This document shows, in pieces, positions 12,762 to 63,550 of a stretch of 64,000 bases of DNA (position 1 is the first letter of the stretch; every line of letters begins with the position of its first letter). The stretch spans positions 9,056 through 73,055 of the forward strand of contig MGUK01000070.1 in the NCBI GenBank assembly GCA_001799995.1. The letters run 5' to 3'. The notes under the pieces were generated by a model, which ran no database searches, was not told the DNA's origin, and saw only the letters and a program-made list of their open reading frames with translations. The stretch comes from Elusimicrobia bacterium GWF2_62_30. Its GTDB lineage: Bacteria > Elusimicrobiota > Elusimicrobia > Elusimicrobiales > UBA9959. The position numbers and the translations under genes are program-made.

Positions 12762-13679
12762 ATGTATACCCGCATAGACATCAAAATCACTTTCCGCTGC
12801 AATAACAAATGCGATTTCTGCGCCCAGGGGCATAAGCGGGATATCGTGACTGACCGCACGCTGGAACAGGTCCACAAAGACCTGACTTCCGCCTACGCCA
12901 ACGGCAGCCGCGACGTGGTCTTTACCGGGGGCGAACCGACCATGCACCCGCATATCATCGACTGCGTGGCTATGGCCAAGAAGCTGGGCTATCACAGGAT
13001 ACAGCTTCAGACCAACGGCCGCACTTTCGCGTATAAAGGCCTTCTCGAACGCCTCAAAGCCGCCGGCGCCAACGAAATGGGCCCCTCGCTGCATGGCGCC
13101 AAGCCGGAGACCCACGACGGGCTCACCCACGCGCCGGGCAGCTTCATGCAGACCGTTTCCGGCATAAAGAACGCGGCCAGCCTCGGGATGCACATTATCA
13201 CCAACTCCGTGATAACTTCCGCCAATTACAAAGAGCTCCCCGCCCTGGCGGCGCTGCTGGTGAAACTGGGCGTGAGGCAGTACCAGTTCGCTTTCGTGCA
13301 TATCATCGGCACCGCCCTCGAGAACAAGAAATGGATAGTGCCCAGGAAATCGGAGATAATGCCGTGGGTCAAGAAGGGCCTGGACGTGGGCATAGAAAAA
13401 GACGTCCTCTGCTTCACCGAGGCTATCCCGTTCTGCCTGATGAAAGGCTACGAGCAGTGCGTAGCGGAACGGATAATCCCCGAGGGCCCGGTGGCCGACG
13501 GCGAAAAATTCATCAAAAGCTACGGCGACTACCGCCGCAACGAAGGCAAGATCAAAGCCCCCTCCTGCAGGCCCTGCAGGTATTTCAAGATCTGCGAAGG
13601 TCCCTGGCGCGAGTACCCGGAGCTCTACGGCTGGAAGGAATTCCGGCCGGTGCCGGGAAAGCCCGTTCTCAGGAAATGA
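12762..13679 (+). CDS. Radical SAM enzyme, HxsC-like paralogue family
   Basis: CNNKCDFC (CxxxCxxC), FTGGEPT, C-terminal CRPCRYFKICEGPWREYPELYGWKEFRPV (CxxCx5CxG ... YG..E..P), the motif shared by ten genes in this window. Confidence 0.85.
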   Translation: MYTRIDIKITFRCNNKCDFCAQGHKRDIVTDRTLEQVHKDLTSAYANGSRDVVFTGGEPTMHPHIIDCVAMAKKLGYHRIQLQTNGRTFAYKGLLERLKAAGANEMGPSLHGAKPETHDGLTHAPGSFMQTVSGIKNAASLGMHIITNSVITSANYKELPALAALLVKLGVRQYQFAFVHIIGTALENKKWIVPRKSEIMPWVKKGLDVGIEKDVLCFTEAIPFCLMKGYEQCVAERIIPEGPVADGEKFIKSYGDYRRNEGKIKAPSCRPCRYFKICEGPWREYPELYGWKEFRPVPGKPVLRK

Positions 13680-14992
13680 AGAACACCGCAACGGAAATCC
13701 TGAACCCGCTGCCGGGCGTAACAATTCACGCCGACCGCGCGCGCCGCAGGGTGAGCGTCCGCGTCAGGCCCGGACCCGCCGCCCACGGCCCGCTCCGGGA
13801 ATTACTCTATCGCGTCCTCAACGCCTACGAAAAGCGCTTTACCGTATCCATAGCGGGAGTTCCCTTCTGCTTCCTGCCCGACGCCGCGGACCATATTACG
13901 GCACAGCCCGGGACTGGCGCGGGCGGGCGCCTGAATATCTGCCGGGACTGCCGCCTGAGGCACGCCTGCCCCGGGCCGGGCGGCCCGTTCTTCCGCCGCC
14001 CGGACGCCGGGCTAAGGCCGGTGCTCGCGGTCCCGTCGGAAATAGTCTTCGAGGTCAACCGCAAGTGCAACCTGGCCTGCCGCGTCTGTTCGTCCAGGCA
14101 CCTGCAGGAAGAGCTCAGCCTCCCGCGGGTAAAGCGGGAACTTGCCCGCGCCCGACGGCTGGGGATAAAGAACGTCCGCTTCACCGGCGGTGAGCCGTTC
14201 CTCCACCCGCGGCTCCTTGAAATGCTTTCGGCGGCCAGGAAGAACGGGTTCTACGTCCTCGTGAACACCAACGCCACGCTGCTGACCCCCTCCCTGATAA
14301 AAAAGGCTGCGCCCCTGATGGACAACGTGCTGGTCTCGCTGCAGGGCTGGGACGCGGCTTCGGACGCCGCGGAAACGGGCGCGGCCGGCCTTTTCGCCGC
14401 CAAGCTCCGGAACATAAAAGCGCTGCGGCGCGCGGTGACTACGCTGCGTTTAGGCACTGTGATTTCCGCCGCCCTGCCCGGCGTCCTGGACAAATATCTC
14501 GGGCTGGCAGCCGGGCTTCAGGCCGACATCTGGGAGCTGTACCGGCCGATGGCCGGCGCCTCCCCCGGCCGGGGCCGGGAAGTAACCCCCGCGCTTTTGC
14601 GCGGGCTGGCGGACCGCCTGGAAACCGCCGCCGGGACAAAGCCGCAGGTGCTTTTCGCCAACCCGGCGCCGCTCTGCCTTTTTCCCGCCAGGCAGGCGCC
14701 GCTCTTTCTCGGCGCGCGCTTCGACGACGGGCATACGCGGCTGGTGCTGGACCCGCGCGGTTTCTACAAGCCCAGTTATTACATACAGAAGGACCTGGGC
14801 CGCGACCTCATGGCGGCCTGGAACAGCCCCTGGCTGAAAAAGCTGGATAAAGCCGGGTACGCGCAAGGCTGCCGGGCCTGCGTTTTCCGCCTGCGCTGCC
14901 TTGGCGGCAGCCGGTTCCTGGCCGGCGCGGACGGCGCGCGCCGCGGCGGGCGGGACCCCTGGCTGCGCAGCGGTTTGACAGCACGGAAGTAA
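13676..14992 (+). CDS. Radical SAM enzyme with an N-terminal Cys-rich extension and a SPASM/twitch-like C-terminus
   Basis: The ATG at 13676 overlaps the upstream stop (ATGA). Core CNLACRVC and FTGGEPF. The CxxCx5CxG motif occurs twice (CRDCRLRHACPG near the N-terminus, CRACVFRLRCLG near the C-terminus). Confidence 0.75.
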   Translation: MKNTATEILNPLPGVTIHADRARRRVSVRVRPGPAAHGPLRELLYRVLNAYEKRFTVSIAGVPFCFLPDAADHITAQPGTGAGGRLNICRDCRLRHACPGPGGPFFRRPDAGLRPVLAVPSEIVFEVNRKCNLACRVCSSRHLQEELSLPRVKRELARARRLGIKNVRFTGGEPFLHPRLLEMLSAARKNGFYVLVNTNATLLTPSLIKKAAPLMDNVLVSLQGWDAASDAAETGAAGLFAAKLRNIKALRRAVTTLRLGTVISAALPGVLDKYLGLAAGLQADIWELYRPMAGASPGRGREVTPALLRGLADRLETAAGTKPQVLFANPAPLCLFPARQAPLFLGARFDDGHTRLVLDPRGFYKPSYYIQKDLGRDLMAAWNSPWLKKLDKAGYAQGCRACVFRLRCLGGSRFLAGADGARRGGRDPWLRSGLTARK

Positions 14993-15047
14993 AATTGGAG
15001 AATGGATTCCGGGCTGACGCCGGGCCGGCGGACAGCTCCCACCTAAT

Positions 15048-17887: not shown

Positions 17888-19237
17888 TCAGATGCGCGCT
17901 TTTACCGCGATCAGCTTGCGGATCGCGGCCTTCATCTCCTGTATCTCTGAAAAACCGGCCGAACAGAAATGGCCCACCCAGTCTTCGAACATCCGCCTGA
18001 AATCGAAGATATCGTCGCCGGCGTATTTCTTCTCCACGCCGAGGAGCTGGTGCCAGACGGCCGAGCCCGGGATCATGTTCATCGTGTGGATGATGGCCGT
18101 TTCCCAGGCCTGCGCCGGCAGGTCGAGGCTGTTAAGCTCCCGGAAAGTCGTCTTCAGGCTTTTAACGCTCTCGCCGGGAGCGCCGGCCAGCAGGTACATC
18201 TCCGGGACCACGCCGGCTTTGGCCAGGGTCAGTATCCCCCGCTTGTTGGTCTCGCAGGTGCAGCCCTTGTGCAGGCGGCGCAGGATCCCGTCGTCGAATG
18301 ATTCAACGCCGAGTATGGCGTTGCGGACGTTTATCGAGCGCAGGGACTTCGCGCTGCGCTCCGTCACGTCGTCCAGCCGCAGCGCCACTTTCATCACCGG
18401 CTTTTCCCGGCAGGCTGAGGCGCCCGCGCAGAAGTCCCGGAACCATTCTTTCCCGCCCATAAAATCGGCGCTGGAATCGTACAGGCCGCGTATCCCGTAG
18501 CGCTTCGTCAGGCGGGCAATGCGCTTCCAGAGCAGGTCCGGGGAGATAGTGCGATAGCCCCTGTCCTTGATGCTGCAGAAAACGCAGCGCCCGGCTTTGG
18601 AGGCCCGCATGCAGCCCCGCTGCGTGATAAAAGGGATGATCCTCCCGGCGTACGGTGACTGCCGCGAGAAATATTCCTCCAGGTCGACGAGGGAATAGTC
18701 CAGCTCGGGCAGTTCGGAGGCGTCGGGCGTCGCCACCGGGTTTTCCACGATCTGCCCGCTGCCGGCGCGGTAGACGAGATTGTTTATTTTCGAAAAAGCG
18801 GCGCCTTTCACCAGCTCCAGCAAAGCCCGCTCGCCGTCGTACTGCACCACCGCGTCGACGCAGTGGTCCGCGGAGCCGGGCCCCCTGTTGAGCAGTATCT
18901 CCCGTTTGAGAGGCGTGGCGTAGTTCCCGCCGAAAACGACGAAGGCGCCGTTGCGCTTGAGCAGCCTGGCATAACCGAGGTTATCGGCGTAAGTGAGGAA
19001 AATGGGGCTGAAGCAGGCGAAATCGTACCTGCCGGTCTTCAGCCTTTTCGCGAATTCCTCCCCCCCGAGTATCTGCTGGTCCAGGATGTCTATCCTGAGC
19101 CCGGGCAGGGCCTTCCTGAGATACGAGCCGAGGAAAAGCGCCCAGAGCGGCGGCATGGTGCCCCAGCCCTTTCTGCGCAGGAGAGTGCTCTTCAATACGG
19201 CCGGGGCGTAAACGAACGCGATCTTTTTAACGCGCAT
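17888..19237 (-). CDS. B12-binding-domain radical SAM enzyme with atypical Cys spacing
   Basis: N-terminal MRVKKIAFVYAP...VVFGGNYAT cobalamin-domain-like segment. The cluster motif reads GCMRASKAGRCVFCS (Cx8CxxC) instead of CxxxCxxC. Confidence 0.7.
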   Translation of the reverse strand: MRVKKIAFVYAPAVLKSTLLRRKGWGTMPPLWALFLGSYLRKALPGLRIDILDQQILGGEEFAKRLKTGRYDFACFSPIFLTYADNLGYARLLKRNGAFVVFGGNYATPLKREILLNRGPGSADHCVDAVVQYDGERALLELVKGAAFSKINNLVYRAGSGQIVENPVATPDASELPELDYSLVDLEEYFSRQSPYAGRIIPFITQRGCMRASKAGRCVFCSIKDRGYRTISPDLLWKRIARLTKRYGIRGLYDSSADFMGGKEWFRDFCAGASACREKPVMKVALRLDDVTERSAKSLRSINVRNAILGVESFDDGILRRLHKGCTCETNKRGILTLAKAGVVPEMYLLAGAPGESVKSLKTTFRELNSLDLPAQAWETAIIHTMNMIPGSAVWHQLLGVEKKYAGDDIFDFRRMFEDWVGHFCSAGFSEIQEMKAAIRKLIAVKARI

Positions 19238-28127: not shown

Positions 28128-29006
28128 ATGAAGACAATAGTAGGAATTAAATCCTTCCGCGAAGCGGAATATTTCTTCGCCAACGGCGCGGACTCGGTCT
28201 ACTGCGGCCTGTTCACTATCCCGAATAACCGTCCTTTCTGCGAGAATTTCTCGAGCGCCGCCGAGATCGAGCGGGTCATACGGCTGGCGGGCGGCCTCGG
28301 CAGGAAGGTGTACCTGGCCGCGAACCTGATGCTGCGCAGGAGCGACTATCTTAAAACGCTGAGACTGCTGGCGCGGCTGACCGACAAGGGCCTGGCCGGG
28401 GCGATCATCAGCGACCCGGCGCTGCTGGCCTATTTCAAGCGCGAAAGATTCCGCACGCATTTCACGCTCAGCACGCTGGTGAACTGCTTCAACACCCCGA
28501 CCCTGGAATTCTTCGCGGGGCTGGGCATTTCGCGGGTGGTGCTGCCGATACAGATGACGCCGGACAACGCCCGCGCGCTGCTGGCCAACCGCCTGGGGAT
28601 AGAGACCGAGATCTTCTGCCTGCCGCTTTACTACAGCGTGAACGTGGATTCCCACTGCTTCCTGCCCTGCCCTCACGACGGGAGCAAAAAGACGGCCCTG
28701 TTCGAGGATTATCCCTGCCTGCTCCCGTTCATGAGCCCGCAGGGGGACTATTTCATGCCGATGCCCGGCCAGGAGTTCCGGCTCAACGCGCTATACGACT
28801 TTTACAAGGCCGGGGCCGGCTACCTGAAGGTGGCCCGCTGGCCGAACACCCGGCGGGAGGCCGACCTCTTTTTAAAGGCGCGCTACCTGCTGGACCTGCT
28901 GGACAGGGGCCTGGCGCGCGCCGCGTTCGTCAAGCGCGGGCTGGAACTGGACACGAAGCCGATGGAATATGGAAAAAGCTTTACTTATTACCCCCTCCGA
29001 GGCTGA
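28128..29006 (+). CDS. Peptidase U32 family protein (UbiU/RlhA/TrhP-type fold)
   Basis: FANGADSVYCGLF...NFS..EIERVIRLAGGLGRKVYLAANL...GLAGAIISDPALL...FTLSTLVNCFN...GISRVVLPIQM follows the U32 TIM-barrel pattern. Cys-rich segment EIFCLPLYYSVNVDSHCFLPCP. Confidence 0.65.
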   Translation: MKTIVGIKSFREAEYFFANGADSVYCGLFTIPNNRPFCENFSSAAEIERVIRLAGGLGRKVYLAANLMLRRSDYLKTLRLLARLTDKGLAGAIISDPALLAYFKRERFRTHFTLSTLVNCFNTPTLEFFAGLGISRVVLPIQMTPDNARALLANRLGIETEIFCLPLYYSVNVDSHCFLPCPHDGSKKTALFEDYPCLLPFMSPQGDYFMPMPGQEFRLNALYDFYKAGAGYLKVARWPNTRREADLFLKARYLLDLLDRGLARAAFVKRGLELDTKPMEYGKSFTYYPLRG

Positions 29007-45714: not shown

Positions 45715-46987
45715 GTTCCCCAAGACCTTCAACCTGCCCTACCAGCTGGGAGTCTACCTGGCGGCGAACGCCGTATCGGATTCCTGCGCGTTCATGGACG
45801 GCTCGAACTGCGTGATGCCGAAGATAGATTTCATCGCGGGCAATCACGACCTGTATTCCACGCTGCTCTCCCCCGCCGGCACGCACAGGGTCATCTGCAA
45901 CATGGCGGGCCCGCTCCCGCAGAAGAGCAACCCCGAAAAAGCCCTTTCGGGCATGCTTTCCGGCGTGGCCGGCTCCGGCCTTTACTCGGTGATCATGGTG
46001 ACCGGCCTTCCCTTCCAGAAGCTGGCCGGCATGGATTACGAAGGGATAGCCGCCGGGATCAAGGGCCCGGTGCCGGTAGTGGACGTGCCCCCCTCTTCGC
46101 TCGAAGGCGACTGGCTCGACGGCTATGCCGGCGCCCTGGACGCGCTGGCCCGCGCCCTGCCGGAGCGGAAGCTGAAAAAACGCAGGCGCACGGTGGCGCT
46201 AGCCGGCTACCTGCTGGACCGCAACGAGGGCGACCATAAGGCGAACATCGCGGAGCTGCGGCGGCTGCTCGGCCTCTGCGGGCTGGAGCTGGTCTGCGTT
46301 TTCCCCTCCGGCGGCACTTTTGCGGAACTCTCGCGCGCCCTGGAGGCCGAAGTGGTGGTCTCGCTGCCGTACGGGCGCAAGGCCGCCGCCAGGCTGGCGC
46401 AGCGGTCCGGCGCCGTCCTGGTGGAGACCGGGCTGCCGCTGGGCCTCAAAGGCACCGCCGGCTGGCTTAAGGACATCTGCGCGGCCGCGGGGATAAAGGG
46501 CGGGCTCCCGCAGGCCGTAAAGGACCTTGAGCGGCAGGCCGCCGCCGACATCGCCCCCCTGCTCGACGCCATAGCCCACCTGAGCCTGGTCTACGCCGGC
46601 GATCCCTATCTCTTCTCCGGGCTTTCCGCCTTTACCGCCGAGCTCGGCATGCGGCTGCCGCTGGCCATCATAGATTCTTTTCCCAAACCCCTAGGCACCG
46701 GGAAAGTCCCGGAAAGCCTCCTTTTTTCGCCCGGCACCGGGGAGGCCGCCGCGGCGATAGCCGCTTTGTCCGGCTATTCCAGGCCGGCCCTGCTCGCCGG
46801 GAACACGTTCGCCCTCACGGAAGGTTATTCCAGGGGGATCGCCTTCCTGGAGATCGGGTTCCCGTCCTACAGCCACCATTGCCTCGGCCCGGAGCCGTAC
46901 TTCGGCTTCGCGGGAGCGGCGACCCTGGCGGGCCGCATCCTGAACTCCGTCTGCGGCCCCATGACCGAACTGGGCAAGCTGGGCTGA
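45692..46987 (+). CDS. Second nitrogenase component-1-like partner subunit
   Basis: The ATG at 45692 (MKDTSGTEFPKTFNLPYQLGVYLAANAVSDSCAFMDGSNCVMPK) overlaps the fusion gene by 23 nt. It is collinear with 35972-37249. Confidence 0.65.
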   Translation: MKDTSGTEFPKTFNLPYQLGVYLAANAVSDSCAFMDGSNCVMPKIDFIAGNHDLYSTLLSPAGTHRVICNMAGPLPQKSNPEKALSGMLSGVAGSGLYSVIMVTGLPFQKLAGMDYEGIAAGIKGPVPVVDVPPSSLEGDWLDGYAGALDALARALPERKLKKRRRTVALAGYLLDRNEGDHKANIAELRRLLGLCGLELVCVFPSGGTFAELSRALEAEVVVSLPYGRKAAARLAQRSGAVLVETGLPLGLKGTAGWLKDICAAAGIKGGLPQAVKDLERQAAADIAPLLDAIAHLSLVYAGDPYLFSGLSAFTAELGMRLPLAIIDSFPKPLGTGKVPESLLFSPGTGEAAAAIAALSGYSRPALLAGNTFALTEGYSRGIAFLEIGFPSYSHHCLGPEPYFGFAGAATLAGRILNSVCGPMTELGKLG

Positions 46988-47034: not shown

Positions 47035-48234
47035 GTGAAAACATTTTACCTGTCCCTGCTCTGGGACTGCAACGAGAACTGCGTGTTCTGCCTTAAGAAG
47101 GCCCCCCCCGAGCAGGAGAACTCCGTCCCCCCGCTGCTGGAATGCCTGGCGGCCCTGAAGCGCCAGCGCGCCAGGGGGTTCGCCTCGGTCTCCCTCGACG
47201 GCGGCGAGCCTACGCTCAGGCGTGACCTGCCGCGCATCCTGAAGTACGCCCTTTTGCTCGGCTACAAAAAAATAATGGTCATGACCAACGGCGCCGCGCT
47301 GAGCGCGGAGAACGTCCGGCGGCTGGCCGCGCCGGAAGGCGGCCGCCCCTCGCGAATTTCTTTCTGCGTCTCGCTCCACTCCCATAAACGGGCCGTCTCC
47401 GAAAAGCTGACGCGCTCCCGCGGGACCTTCCGGCGGACCGTGGACGGAATAAAGAACCTGCTGGCCGCCGGCTTCGACGTCTCGGTCTATCACGTCATAA
47501 CGCGCCAGAACTACCGCGCTCTCCCGGGCTTCGCAGATTTCGCCGCGCGGGAATTAAAGGGCGTTTCAAAGGTGGTCTTTTCGCACATTTACCCCGTGCA
47601 GCACAACCTGGCCGCCATGCGCGGCGTCTACCCCAGATTTTCAAGCGCCCTGCCTTTCCTGGCCGGGGCCATAAGCCGGCTTGAGCGCGCGGGGGTAACG
47701 CCCATGCTGGGCAATTCCGGCATGATGCCGGTCTGCCTGCTGCGGGGACAGGAAAGTTTTTTCACGCAGGCCTATCTCAAGCATGACGGGGACGCCGTCA
47801 CCTTCGACAGGAACAAGTGGGATACGCGCGACAGCCGGAAGCTGGAGCTGCTCCCCTTTTTCCGGGACGATTTCAACGAGCGCAACCGGGTCAAGGCCGC
47901 GGCCTGCGGGAAGTGCGCCCTCAGGGACGTCTGCAGCGGGATCTGGCGTTTTTACGAGGAGCTCTACGGCGCCGGAGAGCTCAAGCCCTACAAAAAAGAC
48001 GCTTTCAGCGGCATCCCGGCGGACGGCCCCCGGGCCGTGATACGGGCGGCCGGGAGCCGCGCGGCCGGCCTGCAGCCCCTCCTGGTGCGGTTGCTCGACG
48101 CGAGGCTTAAGGGGCACGGCTCGGCGCTGGTCCCGGGCCTGCACGGCAAAAGCCGGAAGACCGCGGCGGCTGAATTCGCGCGGGGCATCGGGATGAAATT
48201 ATATTTCGGAAGAACTCAGGGCCGCGGGCAATAG
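47035..48234 (+). CDS. Radical SAM enzyme, HxsC-like family, with a C-terminal extension
   Basis: CNENCVFC, LDGGEPT, CGKCALRDVCSGIWRFYEELYGAGELKP. There is no in-frame ATG after the upstream stop, so a GTG at 47035 is inferred as the start. About 80 extra C-terminal residues. Confidence 0.7.
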   Translation: MKTFYLSLLWDCNENCVFCLKKAPPEQENSVPPLLECLAALKRQRARGFASVSLDGGEPTLRRDLPRILKYALLLGYKKIMVMTNGAALSAENVRRLAAPEGGRPSRISFCVSLHSHKRAVSEKLTRSRGTFRRTVDGIKNLLAAGFDVSVYHVITRQNYRALPGFADFAARELKGVSKVVFSHIYPVQHNLAAMRGVYPRFSSALPFLAGAISRLERAGVTPMLGNSGMMPVCLLRGQESFFTQAYLKHDGDAVTFDRNKWDTRDSRKLELLPFFRDDFNERNRVKAAACGKCALRDVCSGIWRFYEELYGAGELKPYKKDAFSGIPADGPRAVIRAAGSRAAGLQPLLVRLLDARLKGHGSALVPGLHGKSRKTAAAEFARGIGMKLYFGRTQGRGQ

Positions 48235-49025
48235 ACCAGCCTGTCCACGCCCAGCTTTGCCAGTTCGCTTTCCTTCGCGTAGAACTTCTCCGGGAAATAC
48301 AGGAAAGTGGTATTCCCCTTCACTATCAGCCTCTCCCTCACCCTCGGGTGCGAAAGCTCCAGGGCGCAGGCGCCGCATTCCCTGCCGCAGGAGTCAGGGT
48401 CCGGCTCTTTGCCTGCGGCCGGCGCGGCAAGCCCCGGCAGGCAGGCCCTGGTGCTGGTCAGGTTCAGGTAAGGGTAGTACAGGGAAATAGCGAACTTGCC
48501 GCCGGCGCGGCCCAGGTCCGCCCGGAAGCGCCGCCCCGGTGAAGAAAGCTCGAAGCGGCTCACCCCGGCCTTGAGGAAGAAATCGAGAGCGGCGCGGCTC
48601 GTCAGCAGCAGCCTGCCGGCGCTGAACATGAAAAGATTATCGTAGAGCAGCCTGCCCAGGTTCAGCTTCAGGGGCAGCTTCAGCTGCGCCGCCAGCTCCA
48701 GCGCCCCGAAATCGTTCACGGTCAACTCAAGCGTTCCCTTTTGCCGGCCCGGCCGGGAGAGGCGCGAGAGGGCCTTCAGTACGGCCTTCAGCTTGGGCAG
48801 CCCCGCCGGGCCGGACATGGGCGTAAGGAAGGTGACCTTCTTCCCCCTTGAAAGGAAGAACGCGGCCTGGGCGCGGGCGGTTTCCGGGGAAGGCAGCAGG
48901 TTCGCGCAGAATTCGGCCCCCAGGTAAACCCTGTCGAACCTTGCGAGGACGGCGCGGAGCTTTTCCGGGGAGGCGGCCGTCGCGGCGGCCGCGGCTTCCA
49001 GCCGCACGGCTTTTTCAAGCTTCAT
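48216..49025 (-). CDS. Divergent U32-like partner subunit (UbiV-like position)
   Basis: FDRVYLGAEFCANLL, LTVNDFGAL, TSTRACLPG...DSCGRECGACAL. Collinear with 40359-41174. Its ATG overlaps the upstream stop (ATGA). Confidence 0.5.
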   Translation of the reverse strand: MKLEKAVRLEAAAAATAASPEKLRAVLARFDRVYLGAEFCANLLPSPETARAQAAFFLSRGKKVTFLTPMSGPAGLPKLKAVLKALSRLSRPGRQKGTLELTVNDFGALELAAQLKLPLKLNLGRLLYDNLFMFSAGRLLLTSRAALDFFLKAGVSRFELSSPGRRFRADLGRAGGKFAISLYYPYLNLTSTRACLPGLAAPAAGKEPDPDSCGRECGACALELSHPRVRERLIVKGNTTFLYFPEKFYAKESELAKLGVDRLVYCPRP

Positions 49026-49975
49026 AGGGAAAGCCTCGCCGGGTCCCAGGCGCGCATTCTAGAGACGAACGCCGCGCGGGCCTTTTCCGGGCCCAGTTCC
49101 CCCTTCAGTTCTTCCGCCAGCAGGATCATCTGCCGCATGGCCGCGACCTTGCGGACCTTGAGCGGGGAGGGGTCGGAGCGCGTCCCGTACTTGAGGAAAC
49201 CGGCCCCGGCCGCGAAGGCGTCGAAGAACGCCCCGGCCCCGGACAACCGCAGCGGCCCGCCCGAGTTCACGCGCACGGCCACGCGGGCGGTAATGGCGGA
49301 CAGCTCCCGCTTCCCGGCGGGATCGGCGTCGAGCGTTTTTACGCTGACCTCTCCCCCGCAGCCGCCTATGCGGCACAGCTCGCCCGCCTGGCTCATATCG
49401 TTGAAGGTGTGGAAGACGGGGCGGTGCAGCTTGCAGCGCCCGTTGACGTAGCCGCAGCCGAAGAACCTGTAGTCGAAGAGCTCGGTCTCGGCCCCGGCCC
49501 TGCGGCAGGCGCGGACCATCAGCGCGGTCTCCGGGCCGGTAAGCTGGACGGGGAAGATCACGCGGGAGGCCCCGAGGCGCATGAAGAAGGCCGCGGCGGC
49601 CGGGTTGAAGCAGGGCTGGACGGAACTCAGGTGGATGGCGGCTTTGAACGGGCCCGCCTTGCGCGCGAGCGCGAAGAAGGCCGGGCTCGAGACGATGAAG
49701 GAGTCCAGACCCGCGCGGTCCAGCTTCAGGAGTTCCTCCCCGAAACGCCTCCAGCCGGGAGCGTCGAAATCCAGGTAGAGGGAATTTACGGCGAGCGAGA
49801 GCTTAACGCCCAGCTCGTGCGCCCTCTTCACGGCGGGAAGCAGCCGGCGCGTCCCGAGCCTGGCGGCCAGCCCGTAGCTGGGAAAGGCGGGCACGGCGCA
49901 ATACAGCTCGCCGGCCCCGGCCGCCACGAGCGGGGCCATTTCCGCGGTATCGGTAAAACAGGAAACGACCTTCAT
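49022..49975 (-). CDS. Peptidase U32 family protein (UbiU-like)
   Basis: 317 aa, the same length as and collinear with 41171-42124. AAGAGELYCAV, GVKLSLAVNS, IHLSSVQPCFN, ELFDYRFFGCGYVNGRCKLH. Confidence 0.7.
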   Translation of the reverse strand: MKVVSCFTDTAEMAPLVAAGAGELYCAVPAFPSYGLAARLGTRRLLPAVKRAHELGVKLSLAVNSLYLDFDAPGWRRFGEELLKLDRAGLDSFIVSSPAFFALARKAGPFKAAIHLSSVQPCFNPAAAAFFMRLGASRVIFPVQLTGPETALMVRACRRAGAETELFDYRFFGCGYVNGRCKLHRPVFHTFNDMSQAGELCRIGGCGGEVSVKTLDADPAGKRELSAITARVAVRVNSGGPLRLSGAGAFFDAFAAGAGFLKYGTRSDPSPLKVRKVAAMRQMILLAEELKGELGPEKARAAFVSRMRAWDPARLSL

Positions 49976-51695: not shown

Positions 51696-52133
51696 CTAAT
51701 ATGACCCGTGCGAGCCGTGCGAGCCGTGCGAGCCGTGCGACCCATGCGAGCCGTGCGAGCCGTGCGAAGCATGCGAGCCGTGCGAAGAATGAGACCCGTG
51801 CGAGGTGTGCGAGCCGTGCGAGGCGTGGGAGCCGTGCGACCCGTGCGAAGAATGAGACGAGTGCGAGGTGTGCGAGCCGTGCGAGGCATGCGACGAGTGC
51901 GAAGCGTGCGACGAGTGCGAGCCGTGCGAGCCGTGCGAGGAATGCGAGCAGGCGGCTTCGGTGGATTTGACCGAAACCAGCAGCGCGCCGAGCCCCATGC
52001 CCAGGCCGATGGTGGCCCCGGCCATGTTGCCGATCTTCGTCTTGGTTATGCGTCCCTCCTCGCAGGTGAGGAACTTTTGAAGGCTCTTTTTAAGACGGGG
52101 AAGCTCGTCTTTTGGTTTTTTGCGTTCAGGCAT
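51696..52133 (-). CDS. hxsA: His-Xaa-Ser repeat protein (precursor/scaffold of the Hxs system)
   Basis: 145 aa. Basic N-region, hydrophobic GNMAGATIGLGMGLGALLVSV, then 27 uninterrupted S-H-x triplets (SHSSHGSHGSHSSHA...SHGSHGSY) running to the C-terminus. It lies immediately downstream of two rSAM maturase-like genes. Confidence 0.8.
   Translation of the reverse strand: MPERKKPKDELPRLKKSLQKFLTCEEGRITKTKIGNMAGATIGLGMGLGALLVSVKSTEAACSHSSHGSHGSHSSHASHSSHASHGSHTSHSSHSSHGSHGSHASHGSHTSHGSHSSHGSHASHGSHGSHGSHGSHGSHGSHGSY
51699..51947. repeat. Degenerate 9-bp-periodic tandem repeat encoding the H-x-S array
   Basis: The plus strand reads (gtgcgagcc/gtgcgaagc/gtgcgaccc...)n. All alternative frames are open, which creates several spurious track ORFs. 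Confidence 0.9.
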
Positions 52134-52183: not shown

Positions 52184-53680
52184 TCACTTTTTGAACACGT
52201 CCTTATACCAGCCCTCGTTAAGCCAGGAGGCCAGGACCTTCCGGTCCTCCGGGCGCGAAAGCTTTTCGAAAATTATCTTCAGTATGCCCTTGTTCATCAT
52301 GCAGCGCTGGTCGTTGGCCTTCTGCGGGAACAGGCTGCCGGAAAAATAGCTGTTGATGGGGCAGACCCCGCAGAACGGCTTGAAAGCGCAGTCGGAGCAG
52401 CCCGGCAGGCTTTCGAGGCAGGAGGAGACGCACAAGGTCTTGGTGACGGGGCTTTCCAGCACCTGGGTATAGGAGGTGTCGGCCACGTTGCCCAGCCGAA
52501 AGCTCTCGTCCCCCATCACGGAAAGCATGCGGCCCTCGTCGCAGGTGTAGATGTCGCCGTTGTAGTTATAGGCCAACTGCCCTATGGCGGCGCCGCAGAT
52601 CATGCGGCAGTCCATATGCGCGGGATCGGAGCCGGACAGGATCTTGGTAAGCAGGGTCTGCGCCGTCTTCTCGCGGATCTTGACGCCCTTGAGGTTAAGG
52701 GTTATCAGGTACTCCAGCAGTTCCCGGTAGAACGCCAGGTACTCCGCCGCGCCGTAGCCGATGCGCTGCCAGTTGGCCGCGGTAAAGCCGAAAGGGTTCA
52801 GCGGGCGCGCGTAGATCTCGCGCAGGCCCAGGCGCAGGTATTCGTCCACCAGCGCGCGGGCGGAGCCGAGCGCCTGCCTGGTGACGGTGGCGAGGGCCGT
52901 TATCCTGTAGATGTAGCCCTTCTTGAGATAGCGCGGCCGGGCCTTGTTGAACTTCTTGATCCAGGAAACGACCTGCGCGTGGCTGGAGCCGCGGCTGTAG
53001 ACGCGCTGCGCGTCGTGCAGCTTGGCCGGGCCGTCGAGCGAGGTGGCGACGCCGATATTGTTGCGGAAGATGAAATGCAGCTTTTCCTCGTCCAGCGAAG
53101 AGAGGTTGGAGACCAGTTTGAAATCCACGCTCTTTTTGAGCTTGGCGGCCTTGTCCTGGGCGTACTTGACCGAGAAAAGCAGGGTCTCCCAGTTCAGGAA
53201 GGGTTCGCCGCCCTGGAACTCTATGACCAGATTCTTCCCGGCGGAGGCGAAAATGAAGTCCAGCGTCTTGCGGGCCGTCTCCACGTCCATGTCGAAGCGC
53301 TTGTCCTCCTCGCCCTTGGCGGAGGCGTGGCAGTACACGCATTTCTGGTTGCAGCGTATCGTGAGGATCATGATATGCAGCGTAGTGCCGGCGAACACCG
53401 AGGAATGGAGGTTGGCGAACTTCTCCGCGCAGGACGCGAAGCCGGCCGATTCCACGAAGAAGCCGCTCTCGGACAGCTCCGCGTATTTGGGATGGCCGCA
53501 GTCCAGCTTCCCGGAGGAGAAAGCCGTGAATTCGTTCTTGTCGAGCACGGCCCAGCCGCCCCAGTCGTTGGTGACCAGCATGCGGCCGAGGCCCATCGGC
53601 TCGAAATAATAAGCGCCGGTCTCGGGAGCGGGCACCACTTCCGTCACGGCCGCGGCGGGCTTGGTTTTCTTGGTCTTCAT
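52184..53680 (-). CDS. hxsB: Radical SAM/SPASM-like maturase (HxsB-like)
   Basis: CNQKCVYCHAS, FQGGEPF, C-terminal Cys clusters (...CDEG..., CSDCAFKPFCGVCPINS), an anSME/SPASM-type layout. The ATG at 53680 overlaps the upstream stop (ATGA); the track start at 53692 is a GTG. Confidence 0.7.
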   Translation of the reverse strand: MKTKKTKPAAAVTEVVPAPETGAYYFEPMGLGRMLVTNDWGGWAVLDKNEFTAFSSGKLDCGHPKYAELSESGFFVESAGFASCAEKFANLHSSVFAGTTLHIMILTIRCNQKCVYCHASAKGEEDKRFDMDVETARKTLDFIFASAGKNLVIEFQGGEPFLNWETLLFSVKYAQDKAAKLKKSVDFKLVSNLSSLDEEKLHFIFRNNIGVATSLDGPAKLHDAQRVYSRGSSHAQVVSWIKKFNKARPRYLKKGYIYRITALATVTRQALGSARALVDEYLRLGLREIYARPLNPFGFTAANWQRIGYGAAEYLAFYRELLEYLITLNLKGVKIREKTAQTLLTKILSGSDPAHMDCRMICGAAIGQLAYNYNGDIYTCDEGRMLSVMGDESFRLGNVADTSYTQVLESPVTKTLCVSSCLESLPGCSDCAFKPFCGVCPINSYFSGSLFPQKANDQRCMMNKGILKIIFEKLSRPEDRKVLASWLNEGWYKDVFKK

Positions 53681-53916
53681 ATTGAATTGCACAGCGCCAT
53701 GTTCACAAATTCCGCTTCTACGCGCTCGGCCGGCACCCCGCCCTTGGGCGTTATGACCGCCGTGATATAGGCGCCGCTGCCGGAAATGGAAAAGTCCGCC
53801 AGGGCGGAATATTCACGCGCCGCCTCTTTAACGGCGGCTTCCTTGTAGATCTCCCGGTGCAGCTTAATGCTTAGCTTTTTTAAGCTTGTCTTTTTGGGGC
53901 TTTTCTTTGTCGCCAT
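53677..53916 (-). CDS. Small protein resembling the N-terminal two-thirds of HxsD (second HxsD-like module)
   Basis: 79 aa. IKLHREIYKEAAVKEAAREYSALADFSIS...ITAVITPKGGVPAERVEAEFVNMAL parallels LNLDTYSLESVYQAAYSMLDKLYFYF...LMVEIKSKENLPMPALEKLKGEFLNELL of the upstream gene. Its stop is coupled to hxsB (ATGA). Confidence 0.4.
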   Translation of the reverse strand: MATKKSPKKTSLKKLSIKLHREIYKEAAVKEAAREYSALADFSISGSGAYITAVITPKGGVPAERVEAEFVNMALCNSI

Positions 53917-54274
53917 ATTTTTCTTCCCAGGGCAGCGCTATGCCCAGCGGGTCCTCGATGTAATCGGCCTTGTCGGCGGAGGCGCCTATCAGCGCCTGGG
54001 CTATCAGAGCTTCGCGGACCTTCCTGGTGCGCTTGGCCACGGAAACGCGCAGCTCGGAGTTGAGCAGCTCGTTGAGAAATTCTCCCTTCAGCTTTTCAAG
54101 GGCCGGCATGGGGAGGTTTTCCTTGGATTTTATCTCCACCATGAGGGTTTTGGCGTTGCGCTTGTCGAAATAGAAATAGAGCTTGTCCAGCATGGAATAA
54201 GCCGCCTGATAGACGCTTTCCAGGCTATAGGTGTCGAGGTTGAGGTTGAAGACCGATTTATTCATTTTATCCAT
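53864..54274 (-). CDS. hxsD: HxsD-like protein
   Basis: FLNELLNSELRVSVAKRTRKVREALIAQAL fits the LLNDYxLRE-type motif I recall for the HxsD family. The ATG at 54274 (MDKMNK) is preferred over the longer track ORF. Confidence 0.55.
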   Translation of the reverse strand: MDKMNKSVFNLNLDTYSLESVYQAAYSMLDKLYFYFDKRNAKTLMVEIKSKENLPMPALEKLKGEFLNELLNSELRVSVAKRTRKVREALIAQALIGASADKADYIEDPLGIALPWEEKYGDKEKPQKDKLKKAKH

Positions 54275-54440
54275 ACATTTTATACAAAAAAAGCCGCAGC
54301 GGGCGCACCATCTCCTGCTATATGTATACCACATTCTCCCTCGTGTTCGCAAGGAAAAATTGCCGCCCGTTCGCACGGGGCGTTCGCTAATTATATTATA
54401 TACCGGCCGGAGGCCGAAGTCCCGAAGAAATCATGAATGC

Positions 54441-55377: not shown

Positions 55378-56388
55378 TCAGCGGTGCCCGGCCGCCCGCT
55401 CCCCCGGGCCCTTTCGCCGGGCCGGTAATTTTTCAAAATTGAGCACGAAAGGCCTCGCGGCCAGCGTGGAGAACAGCGGTTTCCCGCCCCGGAAAGGCTC
55501 CGCCCTGCCGCCGGACACCCGGATCTCGTCCGAGAGCGCCAGCCGCCTGTAGAGCCCGTCGTCGAGCAGGGAGCGCGGCAGGGAGACGGCCGGGCCGGCG
55601 ATGCGCCCGTCCTTAAGGCGCCCGTCCACGAAGGCGTAGCGGTACTTCCCCCAGAAAAGGACGGGCTTGGCCAGCGCGGCTTCCAGCGCGGCCGCGTATT
55701 CCGGCGCGTAATGTTTTATGAAGGCGAAGATGTCCGCGGCCTTGCGGAGGCTTCTGGGGCAGTCATAGGAACAGGGATGCCAGCCTATGACGTGCAGCGT
55801 CTGGAAGACGTACCCGCTGTTGTACTTTTCCACCTTCGCGTAGCTGCGCTGGTCCGCGGCGTTGTCGTTATGGATGCGGGAGGAATAATTGTAGACGTTG
55901 TTCATCCTGAAATCCAGCTTCTCTTTTCCCGCCGTGCCCTTGTACGCCATCTCCACCAGGTCCTGCCCCTGCCCCATCGTGTCGAGCCACTGCCGGTACA
56001 TGCGGATGCAGCATTCCGGGTAGCCCAGCATCACGGACCAGCGCTCGTTGTTCTTCGGGTCCTTCCAGGTCAGCGCCGCCTTCGTCAGCAGTTTCTCGTC
56101 GCGGCCGATGAAGAAGATCTCTTTGCTGCCCTCCATGTGAAAGCAGCTCCTGCCGGCGAACTTTTCGGCCGGGATGCATTTAAGCTTCAGCCTGGCGCAA
56201 AGGTCCTGCAGGAGGGGCAGCCTTTCGTGCGAACAGGAGGTATAGGTGACGGGCTTGGCGCCGGTAAGCACGCCGGCCAGGTCGGAAAAGGTCGGGTCCG
56301 TGATGTTGACGCGGGAGACCCCGGGCGCCAGCGGCCTGGCCAGCCTGATGGTCCCTCCCTCGTAATTGCGGCTTAACAGCGCTTCCAT
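55378..56388 (-). CDS. Cys-motif protein (DUF483-like, tentative), unknown function
   Basis: MLGYPECCIRMY and IGWHPCSYDCPRS form a GYP.CC ... H.PCS..C pair that I associate with DUF483-type proteins. No other motif recognised. Confidence 0.4.
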   Translation of the reverse strand: MEALLSRNYEGGTIRLARPLAPGVSRVNITDPTFSDLAGVLTGAKPVTYTSCSHERLPLLQDLCARLKLKCIPAEKFAGRSCFHMEGSKEIFFIGRDEKLLTKAALTWKDPKNNERWSVMLGYPECCIRMYRQWLDTMGQGQDLVEMAYKGTAGKEKLDFRMNNVYNYSSRIHNDNAADQRSYAKVEKYNSGYVFQTLHVIGWHPCSYDCPRSLRKAADIFAFIKHYAPEYAAALEAALAKPVLFWGKYRYAFVDGRLKDGRIAGPAVSLPRSLLDDGLYRRLALSDEIRVSGGRAEPFRGGKPLFSTLAARPFVLNFEKLPARRKGPGERAAGHR

Positions 56389-56398
56389 TGACGGCTCC

Positions 56399-57364: not shown

Positions 57365-57383
57365 AACAGGGGAGCGGGGAATT

Positions 57384-58334: not shown

Positions 58335-58343
58335 AGGCGGAGG

Positions 58344-60696: not shown

Positions 60697-60700
60697 ATGG

Positions 60701-62493: not shown

Positions 62494-62533
62494 AAAAGCG
62501 AAGGCCCTAGATAAACGCGTGTCACGCGGATAA

Positions 62534-63550
62534 TTATATTATTTTTTTAGCGCCGGGTTTTTTTACCGGCTTGAGCTCGCCGCCCCCGTAGACCCGCAGG
62601 TATTCCTTCCAGATGCCTTCGCAGCCGGCGTAAAGGGCGCAGCCCCGGCACTTGGGCGGCTTGGCGCGGCCCAGTTCCCGGCGGCCCTTGATATAGTCGA
62701 GGCTGACATAGTCCGGTGCCACGTGCTGCACGTTGCGGTAGATCAGGAGCTCGCGGGCTTCGCTGACCTGCAGCGGGTAATAGCCTTCGAAATAACACAG
62801 CGGCACGTAGCGCGCGGACCAGTTGCAGGAGGCCAGGGCGTTGGTGGCCCCCGCCAGGCGCGGGGCGGCGATGTCGAGGCAGTCGCGCATGTACGGGGCG
62901 CAGTCGGAAATGCGCGGCATAAGTTCCTTGAAATTGTCGTGCACGCCGCCATAGCTGGGGTCGGCGAAAATGAACTCGGCGTTATAAAGGCCCAGGCCGG
63001 CTATGAATTTGCCGGTGGCGGGCAGGGAGCGGTAGTTGAGCCGCGTCACGGCGGTGTTGGTGGCTATTATCCCCTTGAAGATCTTCCTGACGTTCTCTAT
63101 GCCCTTGAGCAGCTGGCGGAAGCTGCCTTCCACCCGGGTAAGGGCGTCGTGCACCCGGGCGTCCGGGCCGTGGATGGAGAAGATTATCTCGCTCAGGCCG
63201 CTGTCCACCGCGGCGCGCGCGAAAGCGGGGTAGGAGAAGAGGCGCCCGTTGGTGGCTATGGCCACCCGCTTGAAACCGGAGCGGCGCGCGAAAGCGACGA
63301 GGCGGAAGAAATCGGGGTTGATGGTATTCTCGCCGCCGGCGAACTCCAGGTAGTCGCAGCCCCGGGCCGCGGCTTCCTTTATCTCCAGCCTGAGCTCGAA
63401 GATGGTCTTGGGCTTGATATCCCTTTTGCCGGAATTAATGCAGAAGACGCAGCGGTTGTTGCACTGGTAGCCGGGCACCAGCACGACTTTTTTAAAGGAG
63501 ATCTCATTTGCCATTACAGGTAGCGGGAGGGCGGCGGCGGCGCGGGTCAC
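62534..63550 (-). CDS. Radical SAM enzyme, HxsC-like paralogue family
   Basis: CNNRCVFC, FAGGENT, C-terminal CRGCALYAGCEGIWKEYLRVYGGGELKP. The start is either a GTG at 63550 (GTGA overlap with the upstream stop) or an ATG at 63514. Confidence 0.8.
   Translation of the reverse strand: MTRAAAALPLPVMANEISFKKVVLVPGYQCNNRCVFCINSGKRDIKPKTIFELRLEIKEAAARGCDYLEFAGGENTINPDFFRLVAFARRSGFKRVAIATNGRLFSYPAFARAAVDSGLSEIIFSIHGPDARVHDALTRVEGSFRQLLKGIENVRKIFKGIIATNTAVTRLNYRSLPATGKFIAGLGLYNAEFIFADPSYGGVHDNFKELMPRISDCAPYMRDCLDIAAPRLAGATNALASCNWSARYVPLCYFEGYYPLQVSEARELLIYRNVQHVAPDYVSLDYIKGRRELGRAKPPKCRGCALYAGCEGIWKEYLRVYGGGELKPVKKPGAKKII

Follow-up and report, generated by a model that had tools for sequence, protein, structure and literature searches.

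HxsC-like radical SAM paralogues and an HxsA4-type precursor within a nitrogenase-like gene cluster of an Elusimicrobia bacterium

The window analysed here, a whole stretch of 64,000 nucleotides from Elusimicrobia bacterium GWF2_62_30, holds a composite gene cluster of ~53 kb. This is the group VI nitrogenase-like (Nfl) cluster already described from the Elusimicrobia, with its "extensive rSAM suite" (Méheust 2020), and the HxsD/HxsD_rel/HxsB/HxsA4 cassette embedded in it is new here. Judging from sequence comparison, we lean towards an expanded HXS-type maturation system that would act on HxsA4 and that has, in the Elusimicrobia, merged with Nfl modules. A first-pass annotation had counted fifteen radical SAM (rSAM) genes in 51 kb, and this count holds: between 12762 and 63550 there are 14 canonical CX3CX2C genes and one atypical gene, all 15 with rSAM family HMM support, and all 14 CxxxCxxC strings that had been quoted were located in their ORFs. 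What that annotation overlooked was the main setting given in the literature, namely a group VI nitrogenase-like cluster and its U32 pairs.

Ten of these genes encode proteins of ~290-400 aa whose top NCBIfam match was in every case HxsC or HxsC4:

12762..13679, plus strand: HxsC-like rSAM, 305 aa, with CNNKCDFC and CRPCRYFKICEG; HxsC4 top NCBIfam match, 150 bits (cut-off 500)
37296..38249, plus strand: HxsC-like rSAM, 317 aa, with CNQRCLFC and CSGCSLAAVCRG; HxsC4 top, 89 bits
42124..43044, minus strand: HxsC-like rSAM, 306 aa, with CNLYCVYC and CSRCALEPACCG; HxsC top, 64.5 bits
47035..48234, plus strand: HxsC-like rSAM, 399 aa, with CNENCVFC and CGKCALRDVCSG; HxsC4 top, 109 bits
49975..50916, minus strand: HxsC-like rSAM, 313 aa, with CNLACVYC and CRRCRLEPACCG; HxsC top, 67 bits
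54441..55373, minus strand: HxsC-like rSAM adjoining HxsD, with CNQKCLFC and CSGCALGGECAG; HxsC4 71.5 and HxsC 67.6 bits
57384..58334, minus strand: HxsC-like rSAM, 316 aa, with CNCNCAFC and CAACPKLEDCGG; HxsC4 110 bits
60701..61573, minus strand: HxsC-like rSAM, 290 aa, with CNQRCLFC and CRPCLLKANCFG; HxsC 65.5 bits
61564..62493, minus strand: HxsC-like rSAM nearest canonical HxsC, 309 aa; TIGR03977 166 bits (cut-off 267.9)
62534..63514, minus strand: HxsC-like rSAM, 326 aa, with CNNRCVFC and CRGCALYAGCEG; HxsC4 129 bits

HxsC4 was the top match for six of the ten, and none of the ten reached the NCBIfam cut-off for HxsC or HxsC4; because no HxsC4 (NF038332) score went above 150 bits, with the cut-off at 500, there is no true HxsC4 in the window. 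The ~90-aa domain at the N-terminus of canonical HxsC is missing from all ten, and AhbD, NirJ and AhbC, the first two being tetrapyrrole enzymes, are secondary NCBIfam matches of the HxsC-like proteins. The PxC...CxxCx5CxG C-terminus is common to canonical HxsC and all ten paralogues, and the conservation of this Cys motif, as first proposed for the ten, extends to canonical HxsC of Klebsiella, Agrobacterium and Microvirga. The pattern C..C.....C.G was found 12 times in the six frames of the window, compared to about 0.02 (0.017) expected from composition, and always in rSAM genes: once in each of the ten paralogues and twice in 13676. In the alignment of the ten, CNxxCxxC, the E of GGE, TN, T, PxC and CxxCx5CxG are invariant, GGE being replaced in 54441 (LWE), 60701 (GET) and 62534 (GEN), and the earlier motif YG..E(L/F)(K/R)P reappears as a near-invariant Y..(4)..G..E.......P. 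The likeness of the C-terminus to a truncated SPASM, as first suggested, is putative; SPASM is absent from the precomputed Pfam entries listed for HxsC-like proteins, which give PF04055 alone.

The view that the ten are one sequence family was supported by similarity clustering, which at 60-80 bits puts them together with canonical HxsC in one cluster and leaves MoaA, 13676, HxsB and the B12 enzymes outside. At 100 bits nine of the ten stay clustered and 61564, which scores 70-80 bits against Klebsiella and Microvirga HxsC, links to canonical HxsC. In a neighbour-joining tree the family is not resolved from MoaA/13676 as a clade of its own (23-34% bootstrap). Pairwise identity among the ten is 23-35%, with one pair (42124/49975) at 53%. 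Since several paralogues have 1:1 orthologues in other species, in orthogroups with 100% bootstrap (the orthologue of 12762 at locus L028 scores 587 bits), sequence relationships indicate an ancient paralogy and not a recent amplification. The expansion is shared by related loci of other species.

Besides HxsB, the window encodes four rSAM proteins of other types, three of which (15048, 29677 and 17888) belong to the B12-binding class-B group:

13676..14992, plus strand: rSAM of another type, 438 aa; Cys mini-domain at the N-terminus, CxxCx5CxG at the C-terminus; Pfam Radical_SAM 66 bits
15048..17378, plus strand: class-B-type rSAM, 776 aa, with CNFNCLFC; PhpK/RiPP C-methyltransferase/BchE-like, all below cut-off
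17888..19237, minus strand: B12-binding rSAM with atypical Cx8Cx2C; Pfam Radical_SAM 40 bits (cut-off 29.5), B12-binding weak at 28 bits
29677..31197, plus strand: B12-binding class-B rSAM, 506 aa; Sden_1168/BchE/ApyD-like at 143-152 bits, below cut-off

The top NCBIfam matches of 13676 are AhbD/ScmF/PqqE-like and not HxsC, it scores at most 46 bits against any of the ten, and its pairing with 12762 is kept in L028 and L046. The rSAM genes are intact in frame, with a GC3 of 0.75-0.88 in 14 of the 15 (12762 being absent from that list). For 13676 the start is an ATG inside ORF 13331-14992, and for 47035 it is a GTG; gene calls in other assemblies give 54441-55373 (310 aa), 62534-63514 (326 aa) and, for HxsB, 52184-53680 (498 aa).

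The region 48216-63990 is a single co-directional array in which neighbouring genes overlap or stand apart by ~100 bp at most, and the Hxs cassette is placed within it, not at its side:

51696..52133, minus strand: HxsA4-type precursor, 145 aa; NF038313 (HxsA4) 87.7 bits (cut-off 55)
52184..53680, minus strand: HxsB, SPASM-type rSAM, 498 aa; TIGR03978 467 bits (cut-off 370)
53677..53916, minus strand: HxsD_rel; NF038315 59 bits (cut-off 41)
53864..54334, minus strand: HxsD; TIGR03976 59.5 bits (cut-off 50)
55378..56388, minus strand: conserved protein with no family above threshold; homologue in Patescibacteria operon L048
56399..57364, minus strand: polytopic membrane protein with no family above threshold; homologues in L048 and L049
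59443..60696, minus strand: class-V aminotransferase/cysteine-desulfurase-like; Pfam Aminotran_5 315 bits

HxsB, HxsD, HxsD_rel and HxsA4 alike exceed their curated cut-offs. The HxsA4 precursor is built of a leader with the motif FLxxEEG(K/R)I, a hydrophobic stretch and then HxS triplets, of which we counted exactly the 27 already reported. Read along the minus strand, the genes run HxsC-like(54441)-HxsD-HxsD_rel-HxsB-HxsA, compared to the canonical D-B-C-A (PMC13128918); the statement that one paralogue sits in the HxsC position was wrong, the canonical slot being unoccupied by any of them. The homologues of 55378 and 56399 in L048 score 26 and 88 bits, while L049 has a homologue of the membrane protein only (67 bits), and the aminotransferase gene is shared by the equivalent arrays of L008, L033, the P0085 locus and L052. 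The window also encodes a GT2, a carbamoyltransferase and six SGNH+TPR proteins, and the L046 locus has DegT, an epimerase and deacetylases. PADLOC returned only generic rSAM-core matches to pVip on the locus.

Along with the three B12-type rSAMs, the cluster has two NflH-D fusion plus NflK pairs and three U32 pairs:

28128..29006, plus strand: U32-family protein, upstream of B12-rSAM 29677; Pfam Peptidase_U32 45 bits
28969..29673, plus strand: U32 partner, upstream of B12-rSAM 29677
33493..35991, plus strand: NflH-NflD fusion; Pfam Fer4_NifH 217 bits plus Oxidored_nitro
35972..37249, plus strand: NflK-like; Pfam Oxidored_nitro 139 bits
40359..41174, minus strand: U32 partner (start corrected), beside 41171
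41171..42124, minus strand: U32-family protein; Pfam Peptidase_U32 45 bits
43183..45714, plus strand: second NflH-NflD fusion (Pfam)
45692..46987, plus strand: second NflK-like (Pfam)
48216..49025, minus strand: U32 partner, beside 49022
49022..49975, minus strand: U32-family protein; Pfam U32 39 bits, weak UbiU/TrhP/UbiV matches

The second NflH-NflD/NflK copy is 47% identical to the first. The trio of U32 protein, partner and B12-rSAM (28128-31197) also occurs in L046, and the module of U32 pair and 42124 beside NflHD is kept in L011, L014 and L047. By position, 37296, 47035, 42124 and 49975 are tied to Nfl or U32 genes and not to the Hxs cassette. The three pairs of a U32 protein and a shorter Cys-containing partner resemble UbiU-UbiV, which like TrhP are U32-family Fe-S, O2-independent hydroxylases; the U32 proteins pass the Pfam U32 cut-off but score just 17-28 bits in NCBIfam (cut-offs 275-534) and are 15-21% identical to E. 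coli UbiU and UbiV, any hydroxylase role being putative.

For this kind of locus in the same phylum, Méheust 2020 reports, in its passages on the cluster, multicopy NifH/D/K paralogues next to as many as 13 rSAM genes, of which some are fused to B12 domains. Those passages hold no rSAM classification, and the main text mentions neither U32 nor His-Xaa-Ser and uses "fused" solely of B12-rSAMs and a hydrogenase; compared to that account, the rSAMs here are mostly HxsC-like, and HxsC-like proteins also occur without Nfl. Modules are reshuffled between species, and their combinations recur in at least four differently arranged Elusimicrobia loci. Four other Elusimicrobia genomes have HxsA4-type genes close to NflHD, at 10 kb or less in L008, L020 and L033 and on the same contig in L046/47. 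At most NflHD loci no HxsA was found within 10 kb. In five of the six non-Elusimicrobia contexts examined, HxsD-(HxsD_rel)-HxsB-HxsA4 is followed by 2-10 HxsC-like domains in a single operon. These are L048 (Patescibacteria), where the operon is flanked by ftsZ and nrdD, and L049, the P0085 locus, L052 and L053, which are metagenomic contigs, tentatively archaeal or of uncertain origin; no Nfl genes were found in the 16.5-22 kb examined on these five contigs. A 12762-like gene is solitary in L050. The leader motif is kept in all HxsA4-type precursors seen. HxsC-like domains are also found as fusions of 2-5 domains, which unite different paralogue types (37296-like with 60701-like, 47035-like with 62534-like, 47035-like with 12762-like).

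The HXS anti-phage system (HxsA-D; Li et al., Nat Commun 2026, PMC13128918) likewise has an HxS-repeat protein, a SPASM rSAM HxsB and a small HxsD, and in E. coli HxsB and HxsC mature HxsA and HxsC binds HxsD (PMC13128918). It has one HxsC, whereas this locus has ten sub-cut-off HxsC-like proteins and an additional HxsD_rel. Canonical HxsA carries 5-7 repeats and a peptidoglycan-binding domain, while the repeats of the window HxsA run to the C-terminus with no such domain. Known HXS systems are 99.7% from Pseudomonadota, and any defence role in this Elusimicrobia host is putative. The window proteins do pass the cut-offs of the "rare" NCBIfam variants HxsA4 (NF038313) and HxsD_rel (NF038315); a paper using the names HxsA4, HxsC4 or HxsD_rel was not found in the literature. 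The AF2 model of 12762 (pLDDT 95.9) has as its top PDB fold BlsE (cytosylglucuronate decarboxylase, PDB 7vob), which leads both the full-length fold matches (TM 0.68, E 5e-16) and, over the rSAM core only, the sequence matches to solved structures (97 bits). However, identity is only 24%, the substrate of BlsE is a nucleoside sugar and not a peptide, and the four-Cys motif at the C-terminus sets the HxsC family apart from BlsE and other SPASM/twitch-type rSAMs (MoaA, SkfB, SuiB, GDGT-MAS).

We consider unlikely the published interpretation, in which the rSAM suite helps the group VI nitrogenase-like reductases to make or modify a cofactor of tetrapyrrole type, with a small molecule as the substrate of the HxsC-like enzymes and an Hxs cassette that adjoins them without being related. 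The proposal, as given in the passages of Méheust 2020 on the cluster, is based on a NifH paralogue adjoining the DPOR and CfbCD groups and also invokes B12- and HemN_C-fused rSAMs; in a review of 2026 the function is still entered as unknown and tetrapyrrole-linked. The three B12-type rSAMs, the secondary matches to AhbD, NirJ and AhbC, the small-molecule enzyme BlsE as top fold match and the conserved 42124-U32 module beside NflHD are consistent with it. However, none of the 46 window gene products scanned matched a tetrapyrrole synthesis enzyme or chelatase, the same HxsC-like orthogroups accompany HxsA4/B/D without Nfl on the five non-Elusimicrobia contigs, and the cassette lies inside the co-directional rSAM array.

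We also give little credence to a mosaic of independent neighbours, in which an HXS-type anti-phage cassette, Nfl, U32 hydroxylases and envelope/glycan genes stand side by side and the paralogues serve unrelated substrates. The anti-phage role of HXS in E. coli, the shuffling of modules, the sugar and envelope genes intermixed in the window and L046, and the solitary gene in L050 would fit this, yet the recurrent combinations, the tight co-directional packing, the fusions of different paralogue types and the merely generic PADLOC matches argue against it. That we are dealing with chance Cys motifs or pseudogenised duplicates instead of 15 working enzymes is extremely improbable: the non-canonical cluster motif of 17888 and the altered GGE of three paralogues point that way, but it is contradicted by the HMM support, the intact frames and their GC3, orthologues conserved across species and phyla, and a motif count far above chance. 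Counted against the HXS-type reading that we favour are the sub-cut-off HxsC/HxsC4 scores, the missing N-terminal domain, the BlsE fold match, the AhbD/NirJ secondary matches, the Nfl/U32-tied paralogues, the solitary L050 gene, the low tree support for monophyly and the lack of HxsA within 10 kb at most NflHD loci.

In the HXS-type maturation system that we propose, the anciently diverged HxsC-like rSAMs would each use an N-terminal CNxxCxΦC cluster for SAM cleavage, and the four further invariant Cys (PxC plus CxxCx5C-x-G) probably serve to bind an auxiliary, second Fe-S cluster. Their partners would be HxsB, HxsD, HxsD_rel, the class-V aminotransferase and the conserved membrane protein. 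As HxsC-like copies travel with HxsA4 in several phyla, this ribosomal pre-protein with its 27 His-x-Ser triplets is their likely target; for the earlier suggestion of HxsA as substrate there is now comparative support in the recurrent operon and the fusions. Iterative action, which had also been suggested, is less likely than distinct steps because identity among the paralogues is only 23-35% and for several of them separate orthologues exist. Each would be a non-redundant copy with its own radical step, or its own part in a multi-enzyme assembly, and in the Elusimicrobia the NflH-D/NflK proteins, the UbiU/V-like U32 pairs and the B12-type rSAMs may, more tentatively, act on the same product.

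All 14 CxxxCxxC strings listed in the first-pass annotation were recovered in their reading frames, and each of the 15 radical SAM (rSAM) genes has family HMM support, 14 with the canonical CX3CX2C and one with a Cx8Cx2C variant; PF04055 is listed for the called rSAM genes. Sorting by NCBIfam models divides the 15, named here by gene start, into four kinds:

HxsC-type: 12762, 37296, 42124, 47035, 49975, 54441, 57384, 60701, 61564 and 62534
Class-B/B12-type: 15048, 17888 and 29677; 17888-19237 (minus strand) is the C-x8-C-x2-C variant, with a Pfam Radical_SAM match and a weak B12-binding match
13676, plus strand: a separate rSAM enzyme, neither HxsC- nor B12-type
HxsB, 52184-53680: SPASM-type rSAM of the His-Xaa-Ser cassette, 467 bits (cut-off 370)

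The ten HxsC-type proteins (290-399 aa) always have HxsC (TIGR03977) or HxsC4 (NF038332) as their NCBIfam top match. Their scores against the TIGR03977 equivalog are 64.5-166 bits, with 61564 the highest at 166, compared to a cut-off of 267.9, and their maximum for NF038332 is 150 bits (12762) compared to 500, and on these sequence scores the ten are not HxsC equivalogs. Canonical HxsC also has an N-terminal region of ~90-115 aa before CX3CX2C (motif at residue 96-117), which the ten lack (residue 10-52). That the ten belong to one family, as originally proposed, was borne out by similarity clustering. In an all-against-all phmmer comparison with three canonical HxsC proteins (Klebsiella, Agrobacterium and Microvirga), E. 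coli MoaA, 13676, HxsB and the B12 enzymes, the ten and the three canonical HxsC formed a single cluster at 60-80 bits; at 100 bits the cluster still included nine of the ten, alignments spanned nearly whole proteins, and 61564 bridged to canonical HxsC. The best score to the ten was 38 bits for E. coli MoaA and 46 bits for 13676, and HxsB and the B12 enzymes fell apart from the cluster. A neighbour-joining tree (100 bootstraps) of the ten, their orthologues, the three canonical HxsC, HxsB, MoaA and 13676 recovered the cross-species orthogroups at 100% bootstrap, yet separated the whole family from MoaA and 13676 at only 23-34%; as the tree does not demonstrate a single clade, family membership rests on HMM top matches, full-length pairwise scores and the shared C-terminal domain. 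Pairwise identity among the ten is 23-35%, except for 42124 and 49975 at 53%, and identities of 23-35% do not agree with a recent tandem amplification.

The C-terminal cysteine motif, PxC...CxxCx5CxG, is conserved and is also present in the three canonical HxsC, which indicates a hallmark of the HxsC family and not a feature that arose locally. A full-length alignment of the ten has invariant CNxxCxxC, E of GGE, TN, T, PxC and CxxCx5CxG, followed by almost invariant Y, G, E and P, and the invariant columns were unchanged after 46 homologues were added (56 sequences). The pattern C..C.....C.G occurs 12 times in the six frames of the window, always inside rSAM genes, compared to ~0.017 expected from composition, a count that chance Cys motifs do not account for. 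A PxC...C-x(2/5)-C-x5-C-x-G mini-domain is carried by a stand-alone 186-aa protein (58886-59446, minus strand) and by the N-terminal ~115 aa of 13676 (13676-14020, plus strand); when the other window proteins were searched with an HMM of the C-terminal domain, these two matched weakly, resembling that domain. The solved structure that best matches the AlphaFold model of 12762 (pLDDT 95.9) is BlsE, along the full length; next come GDGT-MAS, SkfB, SuiB, viperins and MoaA. PF13186 (SPASM) is absent from the Pfam matches listed for the HxsC-like proteins. The four invariant cysteines and the BlsE-like fold are compatible with a twitch-like site, and these extra cysteines point to a putative auxiliary Fe-S cluster.

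Between 63990 and 48216 all genes lie on the minus strand, overlapping or separated by short gaps, and this array contains the His-Xaa-Ser cassette:

63990 to 48216, minus strand, in order: TPR protein, 62534, 61564, 60701, aminotransferase, small Cys protein, secreted protein, 57384, membrane protein, unknown protein, 54441, HxsD, HxsD_rel, HxsB, HxsA4, secreted protein, 49975, U32, U32 partner
51696-52133, minus strand: HxsA4, repeat precursor of 145 aa with 27 HxS triplets, 87.7 bits to NF038313 (cut-off 55)
HxsD: small cassette protein, 59.5 bits (cut-off 50)
HxsD_rel: related protein, 59 bits (cut-off 41)

The HxS-repeat protein originally read in this array is real, whereas the placing of one paralogue in the HxsC position did not hold: the gene order is HxsC-like-D-Drel-B-A, with HxsB and HxsA having no rSAM gene between them, compared to D-B-C-A in 99.6% of HXS systems (PMC13128918). 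HXS (HxsD-HxsB-HxsC-HxsA) is an E. coli anti-phage system (Li et al. 2026, PMC13128918), and 99.7% of HXS systems are from Pseudomonadota. HxsA is matured there by HxsB and HxsC, which leave it N-terminally processed and with +8 Da on one HxS motif; HxsC also binds HxsD. The E. coli HxsA carries five repeats plus a C-terminal peptidoglycan-binding domain, and HxsA of Klebsiella, Agrobacterium and Microvirga has 5-7 repeats followed by long C-terminal regions, whereas the window HxsA ends in the repeat array (...GSHGSY) and, judged by this end, lacks such a domain. A leader motif FLxxEEG(K/R)(I/M), then a hydrophobic stretch, then the repeats are common to every HxsA4-type precursor sequence read. 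The names HxsA4 and HxsC4 were not found in any paper in our literature search. In the NCBI record the HxsA gene is uncalled (locus L001, 16193-16636) and an 89-aa opposite-strand ORF is called instead; the 145-aa product is called in other assemblies of the same sequence. Identical protein copies are found in GCA_003488765.1 (contig DNKL01000157.1) and other assemblies, one of them from groundwater project PRJNA268031.

The C-terminal part of HxsA4 (51696-51900) is a perfect (Gly-Ser-His)n triplet with collagen-like G-X-Y periodicity, and it weakly matches collagen-like adhesin models. Its occurrence beside three genes of the U32 'collagenase' family (28128, 41171 and 49022) may be coincidence or may be a clue. 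Each of these three U32 proteins is paired with a shorter Cys-containing partner. Two of the partners (48216-49025 and 40359-41174) end in CxxECxAC ... VYCP(R/F)P and have no Pfam or NCBIfam family match; they align loosely with E. coli UbiV at 15-21% identity, a likeness that is only suggestive. Further genes of the window include:

20071-28004 and 38266-40533: six paralogues, each with TPR repeats, four of them also with an SGNH/GDSL hydrolase domain
Carbamoyltransferase, DUF2284, SAM methyltransferase, GT2 and class-V aminotransferase genes
646-9891, outside the cluster: MotA/MotB-like genes, a FliF-C/FliG-like fusion, a histidine kinase with response regulator and, at 9175-9891, an IS200-type Y1 transposase

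Two further modules encode nitrogenase-like (Nfl) proteins, probably of group VI, with Pfam Fer4_NifH at 186-217 bits and Oxidored_nitro at 41-139 bits:

33493-38249 and 43183-48234: NflH-NflD fusion (NflHD), then an NflK-like gene, then an HxsC-like rSAM

Both NflHD copies (33493-35991 and 43183-45714) keep GKGGIGKST, ...GCxG and DVVCGGF, in line with a NifH-like ATPase that has a P-loop and a pair of cluster cysteines, and their NifD/K-like partners are divergent. Méheust et al. (2020) described NifH/D/K paralogues of groundwater Elusimicrobia as a new group VI with 0-13 adjacent rSAM genes, some B12-fused, and proposed a role in a tetrapyrrole cofactor; in a review from 2026 the function of group VI continues to be given as unknown. 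The density of rSAM genes at these loci is already published. The nifH and nifD genes are separate in what we saw of that account, whereas in the window and in 27 of 27 Elusimicrobia loci (L007-L033) they form one fusion of ~830 aa (matches span residues 1-830). The terms U32 and His-Xaa-Ser were not found in the main text of that paper. The closest relatives of NflHD are from Elusimicrobia, at 39-48% identity over the full length, with weaker ones in Myxococcota, in agreement with the published distribution of NifH group VI.

These 27 loci and the Myxococcota relatives were found by querying species-representative genomes with both window NflHD proteins, and the window proteins, together with an HMM built from the ten, then served as queries against their reading frames. 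Ten of the 27 have full-length HxsC-like genes no more than 10 kb from NflHD. L008 and L033 have 1:1 orthologues of 60701, 57384, 62534, 61564 and the aminotransferase; L028 has 12762 and 13676 orthologues as a pair, L014 a 42124 orthologue with a U32 pair, and L011, a short contig, a 42124 orthologue alone adjoining NflHD. HxsB with an HxsA4-type gene is found in L008, L020 and L033, and a further Elusimicrobia contig (GCA_026388155.1) has the same modules over ~37 kb plus sugar-modifying genes. The expansion is therefore present in related loci, and the 1:1 orthologues indicate that it is shared and old, with each paralogue having its own lineage. A gene like 38266 lies directly upstream of NflHD in L008-L010, L012 and L033.

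The array recurs outside Elusimicrobia. In L048, a Patescibacteria locus (GCA_030018805.1), it is one operon between ftsZ and nrdR/nrdD:

L048 operon, in order: HxsD, HxsD_rel, HxsB (496 bits), HxsA4-type precursor, Cys-rich secreted protein, two SPASM rSAMs flanking a 55378-like gene, 12762-like, double HxsC-like fusion, 61564-like, 62534-like, 56399-like membrane protein

There are no Nfl, U32 or B12 genes in the L048 operon, and the HxsC-like tandem fusion lies at 10918-12891. This layout was found again at four places (L049, the locus of protein P0085, L052 and L053), in some with a class-V aminotransferase; the P0085 locus is known from a gene table without DNA and its small ORF is putative. 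L053 (5658-10492) is a minimal form with HxsD, HxsD_rel, HxsB, an HxS/HSSC-repeat precursor and one double HxsC-like fusion; its neighbours, a Cdc6-type ATPase, an ELP3-like rSAM and a CCA-adding enzyme, tentatively look archaeal, and its precursor is mis-called in another frame. At L050 (10001-10906) a 69%-identical 12762 orthologue stands alone among housekeeping genes (ileS, lspA), so the 12762 type can exist without the rest of the system. An HMM search of 1.84 billion representatives found 5137 HxsC-like proteins at E<=1e-30, and among the best 150 of these, 146 are fusions with at least two matched HxsC-like stretches and up to five. Public metagenomes yield proteins of up to 1580 aa in which two to five HxsC-like domains are fused in tandem (P0121-P0129, P0001 and P0004), and some fusions pair different window types, for example 37296-like with 60701-like or 47035-like with 62534-like.

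The HxsC-like array is best read as belonging with the HxsA4/HxsB/HxsD cassette, as an expanded HXS-type maturation system that in Elusimicrobia is combined with Nfl, U32 and B12-rSAM modules, to which 37296, 47035, 42124 and 49975 are tied by position. The earlier suggestion that HxsA is the substrate is partly supported, and sharpened, by synteny, the fusions and the E. coli precedent, from which the enzymes of the array would act jointly on the repeat protein HxsA4; the same three lines favour separate roles over repeated action of redundant copies. A small-molecule role, to which the BlsE-like fold of the 12762 model points, is possible, and so is the tetrapyrrole reading for the Nfl part, for which the published hint draws partly on the adjacent rSAM genes. 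Both leave unexplained why the array recurs with HxsA4 where no Nfl is nearby. A role in defence, as for E. coli HXS, is possible for the window system as well; in a PADLOC scan ten proteins gave pVip similarity at the generic rSAM core only, and there was no specific defence match.

We consider it unlikely that the Nfl proteins of Elusimicrobia act not on a tetrapyrrole but on rSAM-modified HxsA4 or on units released from it. If they did, they would be the first nitrogenase-family enzymes with a peptide-derived substrate, and the multi-HxsC array would be a new, widespread multi-step protein/RiPP maturation machine spanning Elusimicrobia, Patescibacteria and further uncultured lineages. Three points appear to be new here: the rSAM suite is classed as HxsC-like, an HxsA4 cassette is embedded in the cluster, and the array recurs independently of Nfl in more than one phylum. 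Most rSAMs beside group VI Nfl are of HxsC type and accompany an HxS-repeat precursor even where no Nfl was found nearby, which makes HxsA4 a small, expressible candidate substrate. The HxsC-like family is large and uncharacterised, with many members being fusions of 2-5 domains. It was only in 2026 that HXS of Proteobacteria was shown to be an anti-phage effector matured by rSAM enzymes; the present finding adds a much larger HXS version, which has as many as about ten maturase domains and occurs in small-genome uncultured lineages.
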